Of a DNA stretch of 64,000 nt, positions 53,270 to 54,843 are shown piece after piece; positions within the stretch are counted from its first letter, which is position 1; every line of letters starts with the position of its first letter. The DNA is from Escherichia coli (GTDB lineage Bacteria > Pseudomonadota > Gammaproteobacteria > Enterobacterales > Enterobacteriaceae). Both the position numbers and the translations under genes were made by a program. The stretch lies in NCBI RefSeq assembly GCF_044324875.1, contig NZ_CP172185.1, one strand, 5' to 3'. The notes below the pieces were generated by a model. That model ran no database searches, was not told the DNA's origin, and saw only the letters and a program-made list of their open reading frames with translations.

Positions 53270-54843
53270 TCATTTCTCCCCTGTCACCGTATTCTCTGAA
53301 ACAGGCCCCAAATCGTCCCAATGATATTATTCACTGTCATGTTAGTTGTGCATAACATCCATGTACCAAGCATAGGATCGCCAAATAAAAAGCGGATATC
53401 TGTAAGTTTATCCGATGACGACGACACAATAACGGCCTGTCTGATACGATACCCGGGTATTTCACGGGTATTTGTTACCTCATGATTTCGTTCTATGATC
53501 CCCAGAACATAAGACCCCACGGAATAAACACTTCCGACGCTCGCTGGCCGCCCCGCTTCTCCTCTTGGCCCCTGTGGACCTGCCGGACCGCGTTCACCTG
53601 TATACCCTCTTGGCCCCTGTAGACCTGTCTGCCCGCGTTCACCTGTATCGCCCTTTGGCCCCTGTGGACCTGCCGGACCGCGTGCACCTGTTTCACCTTT
53701 TGGTCCCTGTGGACCACGCTCCCCCTGGGCTCCCAGCTCTTTCCATTCAGACCAGGGGCCATTACCGGTAAAATTACCAGTAACAGTTCTTACGAACTTT
53801 CGTGGTGGGTTCCAGGTTGTATATTCATGCTGGCAATATCCCCATGCACCAACTCTTACCTGAAGATAACCCGCTCTCTGAATCGGATAATTATTTTCTC
53901 GTGTAGCCCCACTGTCTGATGGCTGATAATAATCACCCTGATCGGTCACTCGTCCCAGTCGGTTCAGATCACCATTCAGCAGTTGTCCACGGGCTGACTC
54001 TCCTCTTGGTCCCTGAGGACCTTCCGGACCACGTGCACCTGTTTCGCCCTTTGCTCCCTGTGGACCTGTCGGACCGCGTTCACCTGTTTCACCTTTTGGT
54101 CCCTGTGGTCCTGCCGGGCCGCGTTCACCTGTTTCACCCTTTGCTCCCTGTGGACCTTCCGGGCCACGTTCACCTGTATCCCCCTTTGGTCCCTGTGGAC
54201 CTGCCGGGCCGCGTTCACCTGTTTCACCTTTTGGTCCCTGTGGACCTCCCGGATCTCCTTTATCCCCCTTAGGGCCTTTTTCTCCTCGCTCACCCTTTTC
54301 TCCCTTCAGACCCTGAGGGCCTTCCGGACCACGTGCACCTGTTTCGCCCTTTGCTCCCTGTGGACCTGCCGGGCCGCGTTCACCTGTTTCACCTTTTGCT
54401 CCCTGTGGACCTTCCGGACCACGTGCACCTGTTTCACCTTTTGGTCCCTGTGGACCTGCCGGGCCGCGTTCACCTGTATCGCCCTTTGGTCCCTGTGGAC
54501 CTGCCGGACCGCGTTCACCTGTTTCACCTTTTGGTCCCTGTGGTCCTGCCGGGCCACGTGCTCCTGTTTCACCTTTTGGCCCCTGTGGCCCGGTAATGCC
54601 TCTTTCACCACGAGCGCCGGTATCCCCTTTCTCTCCTCGTGGTCCCCGGGCAGATGCTGCTCGTTTCCGGGCTTCCTCCGCCTCAGATGCCGCGGACTCT
54701 GCTCTGTGCAGTATGGACTGCACCACAGCCTCCAGCTCTGACAACGCCTTCGGATAATAAGGAGCATCTTCCATCTCCATCAGAAATTTATTCAGTGTTC
54801 CCGGTGAAGAATCGTAAGCGACTCGTCAGAACCGTATTGATAT

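Follow-up and report, generated by a model that had tools for sequence, protein, structure and literature searches.

A prophage collagen-like tail fibre of Escherichia coli: its repeat units, the insertion that splits its gene and the reading frames that overlap it

In the 64,000-nucleotide stretch of Escherichia coli DNA analysed here (the window), positions 53500-54700 hold a long Gly-X-Y array that is overlapped by open reading frames (ORFs) in several frames. Which of these frames is the gene, what does it encode, and does the number of repeats vary among related prophages? The array lies on the minus strand, inside an ORF of 498 amino acids (53284..54780). We conclude, with a probability of about 0.9, that a lambdoid-prophage side tail fibre is encoded here, one of the E. 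coli 'prophage collagen-like' kind, with the array as its collagen stalk, that the fibre gene is split by an insertion sequence (IS), and that the extra ORFs are compositional. This kind of protein and its length variability have been described previously, and the idea of a recombination hotspot is already published (PMC7242381, PMC5601072).

Collagen repeat units and their variation among homologues

The Pfam Collagen family (PF01391) matches four stretches of the 498-residue ORF (E=1.1e-45), and uninterrupted (Gly-X-Y)n runs are present in it. Counting Gly at each third residue of the assembled sequence gives three runs, of 45, 27 and 21 triplets (93 in all). The first run, block 1a (54241-54645, minus strand; residues 46-180 of the ORF), consists of six 45-nt units and then a non-repeated Lys/Glu-rich stretch; block 1b (53995-54237, minus strand; residues 182-262) consists of five such units and the block end; and the units of block 2 (53545-53733, minus strand; residues 350-412) belong to the same 45-nt family as those of block 1. 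A register break with one extra residue, GDPGGPQG (54235..54258, minus strand; residues 175-182), splits block 1a from block 1b, and 87 non-collagen residues (53734-53994) keep blocks 1b and 2 apart. An earlier note on this DNA had read about 100 consecutive triplets here; its size was about right, but the array is not continuous, being interrupted by the kink and by the 87-residue domain. Further collagen-like runs were sought across the window and none was found besides this array.

The repeat-unit analysis that the earlier note had proposed, done with Tandem Repeats Finder (TRF), returned a period of 45 nt; 13.3 copies of the repeat lie at 54006-54588 and 3.4 at 53561-53715. Each unit encodes 15 residues, with the consensus GPQGPKGETGERGPA. 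The eleven canonical units of block 1 are 82-100% identical to one another (mean 89%). Exact direct repeats of 25 nt or longer number 24 in the array and reach 51 nt, and exact repeats of 31-35 nt are common to both collagen blocks.

The comparison among relatives covered 32 complete homologues, made up of 29 database proteins, two genome loci (L001 and L002) and the window gene as restored in silico (next section). Their first collagen block is 19, 24, 29, 34, 39, 44, 52, 72 (the window) or 77 triplets long, and their second blocks also vary in steps of 15 residues. In nine complete chromosomes the three runs include 45/37/20, 45/32/21, 45/32/20, 45/32/15, 45/17/20 and 35/17/21, next to 45/27/21 in the window. 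When the DNA was compared unit by unit, whole 45-nt units were found to be gained or lost on either side of the kink. Comparing triplet number among related prophages, as had been suggested for this array, thus shows variation by whole units of five triplets. One complete genome, TUM1886, carries a 457-aa allele in which block 1 is fused in frame to the end of block 2 and the knob (the 87-residue domain described below) is absent.

These results support the earlier suggestion of a recombination hotspot for fibre-length variation, through the whole-unit changes, the shared repeats and the TUM1886 fusion. The variation in repeat number points to recombination or to slippage; either is possible, and the sequences do not separate the two. 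Misaligned recombination or replication slippage could add or remove whole 15-residue units (about 4.3 nm each) with the frame kept, and recombination between the two collagen blocks could delete the knob. The locus is a clear further example of fibre length quantised in 15-residue steps, and of domain loss through exchange between collagen blocks. Both observations agree with the older view that recombination is promoted by collagen repeats in phages, and they leave current understanding unchanged. Streptococcus thermophilus phage antireceptors have Gly-X-Y repeats between domains, for which the same role was proposed (Duplessis and Moineau 2001, cited by PMC5601072 and PMC7242381); these are unrelated proteins of unrelated hosts with short arrays, whereas the array in the window makes up about half of the protein.

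A more far-reaching possibility is that the 45-nt units act as a frame-preserving recombination cassette, a contingency locus with which phage lineages would retune the reach of the fibre by about 4.3 nm at a time and, through exchange between the collagen blocks, lose or recover the knob, matching the depth of different O-antigen or capsule layers and shifting host range. A block 1 ladder running from 19 to 82 triplets and a TUM1886 allele that lacks the knob would both fit such a cassette, which we consider speculative and rather doubtful.

It is less probable still that the differences in triplet number are mostly assembly artefacts, produced by collapse or expansion of the 45-nt repeat. 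Many database relatives are labelled 'partial' and sit where a short contig ends, short contigs are also the main source of the shortest forms, and one database protein (P0313) carries a wrong-frame read of the array. Some short forms may indeed be assembly collapses, because part of the ladder derives from short-read assemblies, in which repeats may collapse, and many of the relatives are partial proteins on short contigs. However, there are seven run patterns in the nine complete chromosomes, all of them in frame and in multiples of five triplets; a 441-aa form is found on 124 contigs, one of them of 5.6 Mb; and point changes between the units permit their alignment one by one. We therefore regard the unit-wise variation as mostly real, and artefact as an unlikely source for the bulk of it.

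An IS66-family element within the fibre gene

The 498-residue ORF is the 3' remnant of a longer gene. It starts at an internal Met (MEMEDAPYY...), and upstream of this ATG a further short stretch of fibre coding sequence (..PGTLNKFL; 54781..54805, minus strand) runs up to an 8-bp target-site duplication, GAAGAATC (54806..54813). Next to it lies an IS66-family element, ISCro1-like and 2,699 bp long (54814..57512, minus strand), followed by the second copy of the duplication (57513..57520). The element has the three ORFs of its family, all on the minus strand: tnpA (56782-57459, 225 aa), which equals ORFs annotated as IS66 TnpA by RefSeq, tnpB (56435-56782; Pfam TnpB_IS66) and the DDE transposase (54844-56415; Pfam DDE_Tnp_IS66 and zf-IS66). 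Together with the 8-bp duplication and the imperfect terminal inverted repeats beginning GTAA at its ends, they place it in the IS66 family.

Beyond the element lies the 5' fragment of the fibre gene, codons 1-83 (57513..57760, minus strand), which encodes the first part of the phage_tail_N domain (PF08400, E=2.8e-28). The ORF called here, 57509-57760, terminates on a TAA supplied by the IS end, its fibre residues finishing in ...VREDSS. When the element and one copy of the repeat were removed in silico, the two halves joined into a single ORF of 589 codons, of which the 498-residue ORF represents codons 92-589 and the stop. The restored ORF is colinear with intact E. coli homologues, and its junction sequence is that of the uninterrupted loci L001 and L002. 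Intact homologues start MAAVK...EDSSPGTLNKFLMEMED, and in the window the halves of this N-terminus flank the IS element. The closest relatives in complete genomes, TUM9803 (529 aa) and LH50-c (604 aa), both start MAAVKISGVLRDG...VREDSSPGTLNKFLMEMEDAPYY and are annotated 'prophage tail fiber N-terminal domain-containing protein'. The insertion falls after codon 83, and the long ORF therefore lacks codons 1-91, most of phage_tail_N. The fibre gene in the window is a pseudogene, split by the IS66-family element.

For annotation this split is a bigger problem than the spurious ORFs that had first drawn attention to the array. An ORF of 498 residues with a strong Pfam match would pass as an intact 'collagen-like' or 'tail fibre' protein, and it is really the distal piece of an IS-split gene. 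The IS junction is also found in several draft E. coli assemblies, and in one assembly the opposite IS end lies at the identical base. Among the complete E. coli genomes of the collection searched, no record had at least 80% coverage of 52600-58300, the fibre-IS arrangement, and the exact 498-residue sequence was absent from a collection of 15 billion proteins.

Could the 498-residue ORF still be a complete functional gene, translated from its internal Met, perhaps with transcription starting in the IS end, and giving a truncated fibre or a free collagen-like protein? It is uninterrupted over 1,494 nt, has an ATG start and retains collagen, knob and C-terminal domain alike, and outward transcription from an IS end is possible in principle. 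We nevertheless judge this very improbable. All nine of the intact loci examined (9/9) have 91 more N-terminal residues, and in the window these missing residues sit 2.7 kb upstream, across an IS with its target duplication, so that most of phage_tail_N is missing from the ORF. A Shine-Dalgarno sequence was sought before the internal ATG and none was found, whereas the native start has GGAG, and a scan for promoters and terminators near the start of the remnant gave nothing above chance.

The surroundings of the gene also argue for a pseudogene in a decaying module. The gpJ gene, directly upstream of the fibre, is likewise destroyed, broken by an IS21-family element: the intact J gene of a draft relative aligns in two parts, first at 64000-60922 and next at 58283-57502, and the 2.6-kb gap between them holds IS21-type istA and istB. 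Downstream, the partner of the fibre is a gene for a 191-aa DUF4376 protein (52694..53269, minus strand; PF14301, E=2e-20), whose PHROG families are labelled 'tail fiber protein'. A DUF4376 gene directly follows the fibre gene in nine of the nine intact loci examined, and the order gpJ, fibre, DUF4376 is that of the nine intact annotated E. coli loci examined. Beyond it come a gene for a YadA-like trimeric autotransporter, a sigma-like HTH gene, an IS256-family transposase and the aerobactin operon. Positions 36000-52600 are 99.5% identical to E. coli chromosomes, on which ground a Shigella origin, considered in view of the IS load and the aerobactin genes, was rejected. A single one of these chromosomes, ECCNB12-2, was examined here, and at this locus it has lost the DUF4376-fibre-J part; this deletion of the module in a related complete genome is a further point against a functional ORF. 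With gpJ and the fibre both split in an IS-rich setting, what the window contains is a decaying prophage tail module in an IS-filled island, a prophage remnant no longer able to build tails.

Domains of the restored fibre and its relation to known fibres

The restored protein of 589 residues has, in this order, a phage_tail_N domain, collagen, a pyocin-knob-like domain, collagen, and an uncharacterised C-terminal domain. Residues 1-136 form the tail-fibre N-terminal domain, with PHROG tail-fibre N-terminal profiles covering residues 3-135. The last part of this domain, a short helical Ala/Glu-rich stretch (PKALSELEAVVQSILHRAESAASEAEEARKRAASA; 54646..54780, minus strand), leads into collagen, which begins at residue 137. 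Collagen thus comes directly after the N-terminal domain, and there is therefore no long coiled-coil region. The identification as a tail fibre, already made in the earlier note, is upheld by the PF08400 N-terminus, by the PHROG label 'tail fiber protein' and by the place of the gene after gpJ.

The globular insert of 87 aa between the collagen blocks (53734..53994, minus strand) had, as a single sequence, no match in Pfam (E<=10), NCBIfam or PDB sequences. An exhaustive search with it returned 274 representative clusters, in which it often occurs as tandem copies in long fibre-like proteins. A profile built from an alignment of 40 diverse copies of the insert and run with hmmsearch against the PDB matched the R2 and R1 pyocin fibres (6CL6, E=1.5e-11; 6CT8, E=5.5e-11; 6CL5, E=1e-7), over the region named Knob2 by Buth et al. 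(PMC6116203). The AlphaFold monomer model of the insert has a pLDDT of 91.8, and the same three structures, 6CT8, 6CL6 and 6CL5, were its top three Foldseek matches (probability 1.00, TM 0.65-0.71), followed by a phage tailspike and a phage baseplate protein. By sequence profile and by predicted fold, the insert is a pyocin-knob-like domain.

The C-terminal domain of 86 aa (53287..53544, minus strand; ending ..GLFQRIR) belongs to no described family. It is predicted to be all-beta at low confidence (AlphaFold pLDDT 51). As a single sequence it had no match in Pfam, even at E<=10, in NCBIfam or in PDB sequences; a word-indexed protein search with the domain alone gave near-identical fragments only; and a profile of five sequences extended to Citrobacter and a few others, with no annotated family among them. 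The members of this small family end in LFQRI(S/R/A) and also occur in E. coli and Citrobacter on other fibres of the collagen-like kind. From its position, we guess that this domain is probably the distal tip.

We propose that, in the intact fibre, three chains would wind into a rod, trimerisation being suggested by the trimeric recombinant EPclA (below) and by the structures of pyocin fibres. By analogy with lambda Stf, the N-terminal phage_tail_N domain would be the virion-proximal end. The stalk would then run through 72 triplets with one G-X-P-G-G-P-X-G kink, a knob that by analogy may be trimeric, 21 triplets, and the tip. With the collagen rise of 0.286 nm per residue, the two collagen parts would serve as rigid spacers of about 62 nm and about 18 nm. 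They would hold knob and tip off the tail and at the cell surface, a contact role suggested by the R-type pyocin fibres. That the protein is instead a bacterial, non-phage surface adhesin like the streptococcal Scl proteins is hardly credible, for although it is collagen-like and adjoins the YadA-like autotransporter and the aerobactin island, the restored sequence has no signal peptide or anchor, its N-terminus is a prophage tail-fibre domain (PF08400), its gene stands after gpJ as in the nine intact annotated prophage loci examined, and its knob domain is one that phage and tailocin fibres typically carry.

Which known fibre does the restored tail fibre resemble? Ghosh et al. (2012) described the E. 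coli prophage collagen-like proteins EPclA-D and found recombinant EPclA to be a trimer with the CD spectrum of collagen (PMC3368898). The same paper already tabulates variable collagen lengths of E. coli fibres, reports that a G-X-P-G-G-P-X-G interruption is conserved in fibres with two collagen domains, and gives as EPclC-type examples ORF-401 of prophage P-EibA, ECED1_1681 and ECED1_2081. Like EPclC, the fibre in the window has a PF08400 N-terminus and two collagen domains, the first with G-X-P-G-G-P-X-G; it has no long Ala/Ser-rich PCoil, and its C-terminal region is unrelated to PfC (PF06820); its length varies between copies, and a YadA-like (Eib-type) gene lies downstream in the prophage. 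It therefore fits the EPclC type in its N-terminus, collagen domains, C-terminal region, length variation and prophage context. Two differences from the published fibres stand out: the first collagen block in the window (217 aa) is longer than that of any two-collagen example tabulated in PMC3368898, and the copy in the window is IS-split, unlike the EPcl fibres described there.

EPclB was also considered and was rejected, as the fibre in the window has neither the Pf2 repeat (PF03406) nor the PCoil of about 110 aa, its collagen starting at residue 137. Where EPclB has the Pf2 repeat as its middle domain, the fibre in the window has the pyocin-knob-like domain; PF03406 is absent from the window protein and its close relatives and present in more distant relatives. 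The assignment of this middle domain as a knob comes from the profile and Foldseek matches.

The restored fibre is also like lambda Stf and K-12 StfR in its phage_tail_N N-terminus, its place after gpJ and the small partner gene downstream of it. In some relatives, lom lies between gpJ and the fibre. Differences from the lambda module lie in the rod, which is collagen in the window and for which we found no report of collagen in lambda Stf, and in the partner, which is a DUF4376 protein in the window and a Tfa-type (Caudo_TAP) chaperone in the Stf/Tfa module. The Tfa family was not found at the downstream gene and a Stf-type C-terminus was not detected in the fibre.

With the R-type pyocin fibres of Pseudomonas aeruginosa (6CL5, 6CL6, 6CT8) the fibre in the window has only the Knob2-like domain in common. 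The pyocin knob, a trimeric beta domain, is one of the two places by which those fibres may bind a surface (Buth et al. 2018, PMC6116203); the rest of those fibres consists of helix-plus-turn rods, an iron-binding shaft and a lectin-like foot, with no collagen, in contrast to the collagen-rich fibre studied here. A search of the phage GenBank collection found no close relative, the best E. coli phage matches being 32-37% identical and the others generic collagen.

Reading frames that overlap the array

With a cutoff of 60 aa, seven ORFs (68-153 aa) lie over the array in frames other than that of the fibre. All three extra minus-strand ORFs, of 153 aa (54306..54767), 105 aa (53976-54293) and 89 aa (53493-53762), are in the frame one base after the coding frame (sense+1). 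The other four are antisense, on the plus strand, with 68 aa (53565-53771), 117 aa (53919-54272), 87 aa (54333-54596) and 94 aa (54639-54923), and together span 53565..54923.

It had been claimed that all three minus frames stay open here. This is true of the coding frame and of sense+1, and false for the third frame, sense+2, which has 34 stops in the gene (18 of them in the first block) and never stays open for more than 111 nt; it is stop-rich because GGT-GAA reads TGA there. The companion claim, that several plus frames are open, understated the case, as all three have long open stretches (741, 438 and 363 nt).

Inside the collagen blocks, sense+1 and the three plus-strand frames have 0-1.6 stops per 100 codons. 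In the comparison genes (gpJ, the IS66 transposase, iucA and one more long gene of the window) most alternative frames have about 2-7, and one antisense frame is likewise low, at 0.4-3.1. To what is this openness due? We recoded the collagen protein synonymously 1,000 times with the window's own codon usage, and the recoded versions had stop counts as low as those observed; the openness is therefore a by-product of amino-acid composition. In other words, the open frames are real, and they are forced by the composition of the protein: Gly, Pro, Glu, Lys, Arg, Ala, Thr and Gln codons seldom give rise to stops in four of the five other frames.

The products of the seven ORFs are monotonous low-complexity repeats (VRQVHR..., LVPVDL...), and a Pfam search with them gave no family match. 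The synonymous share of the differences between repeat units is 58% for the collagen frame, 3-21% for four others and 64% for one antisense frame. The last value is expected, because the wobble positions of that frame coincide with those of the sense frame. The synonymous test thus favours the collagen frame over four frames only and not over that antisense frame, and the assignment of the frame rests on homology, which confirms the collagen frame as the true one.

One may ask whether some of the overlapping ORFs are real overprinted genes, given that there are seven of them, of 68-153 aa, and that the synonymous fraction of one antisense frame is 0.64 against 0.58 in the collagen frame. There is next to no chance of this, as random synonymous recoding depletes stops equally, the monotonous products have no Pfam family, the ORF lengths must shift with each gain or loss of a unit found among the homologues, and the shared wobble positions explain the high antisense fraction. 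The overlapping ORFs are thus spurious, as the earlier note had held, being low-complexity and driven by composition.

Its caution for annotators was also warranted. An array of this kind gives up to seven false ORFs and breaks short-read assemblies, and the databases contain many partial fragments and at least one wrong-frame protein derived from such arrays. This protein, P0313, begins with a wrong-frame read of the array that is fused to the true C-terminus, and the pitfall of misannotation is therefore a real one.

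IS66 insertions at the fibre module

The junction between the side tail fibre gene and the ISCro1-like IS66 element that splits it in the window is not confined to this contig. In three of the draft E. coli assemblies among loci L004-L007, the fibre-IS66 junction is identical, falling at the base equivalent to 57512/57513 of the window, and in two of these three an IS3-family element is nested within IS66. In a fourth assembly from this set it is the other end of IS66 that lies at exactly that base, and the genes beyond it are unrelated; this suggests either that the IS mediated an inversion or deletion, or that the site was hit by a second insertion.

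Further ISCro1-type IS66 copies were found in or beside the fibre module of the unrelated E. coli strains TUM9803 (L001, 7332-10614) and TO124 (L003, 3024-7752), one lying within the DUF4376 gene and one within another fibre gene. These additional copies in unrelated strains hint that the fibre module is a frequent target of IS66.

A knobless fibre allele and a wrong-frame protein

In E. coli TUM1886 (L016, 346-1719) the same fibre exists as a 457-aa allele that lacks the pyocin-knob-like domain; its two collagen blocks run together in frame, which gives a single-collagen architecture. The frame problem posed by collagen arrays is exemplified in the databases by P0313, a 177-aa E. coli protein annotated as 'putative tail fiber protein from prophage'. 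Residues 1 to ~85 of this protein are collagen codons translated in the wrong frame (VRQVRQGHEVKGDQRGHRV), and the remainder, to which they are joined, is a genuine fibre C-terminus.

Interruption and internal repeat of gpJ

The tail-tip gene gpJ is interrupted by an IS21-family element (58284-60921; istA at 59154-60800 and istB at 58382-59380), leaving pieces at 57819-58283 and 60922-64000. Both flanks of this element are matched by an intact J gene of a draft relative, and the two aligned segments overlap by 6 nt where they meet. Within a coiled-coil-like stretch of gpJ there is a direct repeat of two copies (61385-61710), each at least 152 nt long, 174 nt apart and ~92% identical. The repeat is apparently single-copy in the relative LH50-c (L002), which would make it a second repeat-length polymorphism of the tail module that holds the fibre.

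Genes adjoining the prophage remnant

Next to the remnant lie an aerobactin cluster (iucA-D and iutA), a gene for an MFS transporter and a transposase of the IS256 family (together 36000-49500; transposase at 48332-49492). Of the closest complete E. coli genomes one was examined, ECCNB12-2: it retains the aerobactin island, which there lacks the genes for DUF4376, fibre and J.

Behind the fibre/DUF4376 pair, as in the intact relatives, come a gene for a 531-aa trimeric autotransporter of the YadA-like type and one for an HTH protein resembling sigma factors (49856-51968). This is reminiscent of the immunoglobulin-binding Eib genes that P-Eib prophages carry, a likeness that stops short of an Eib assignment.
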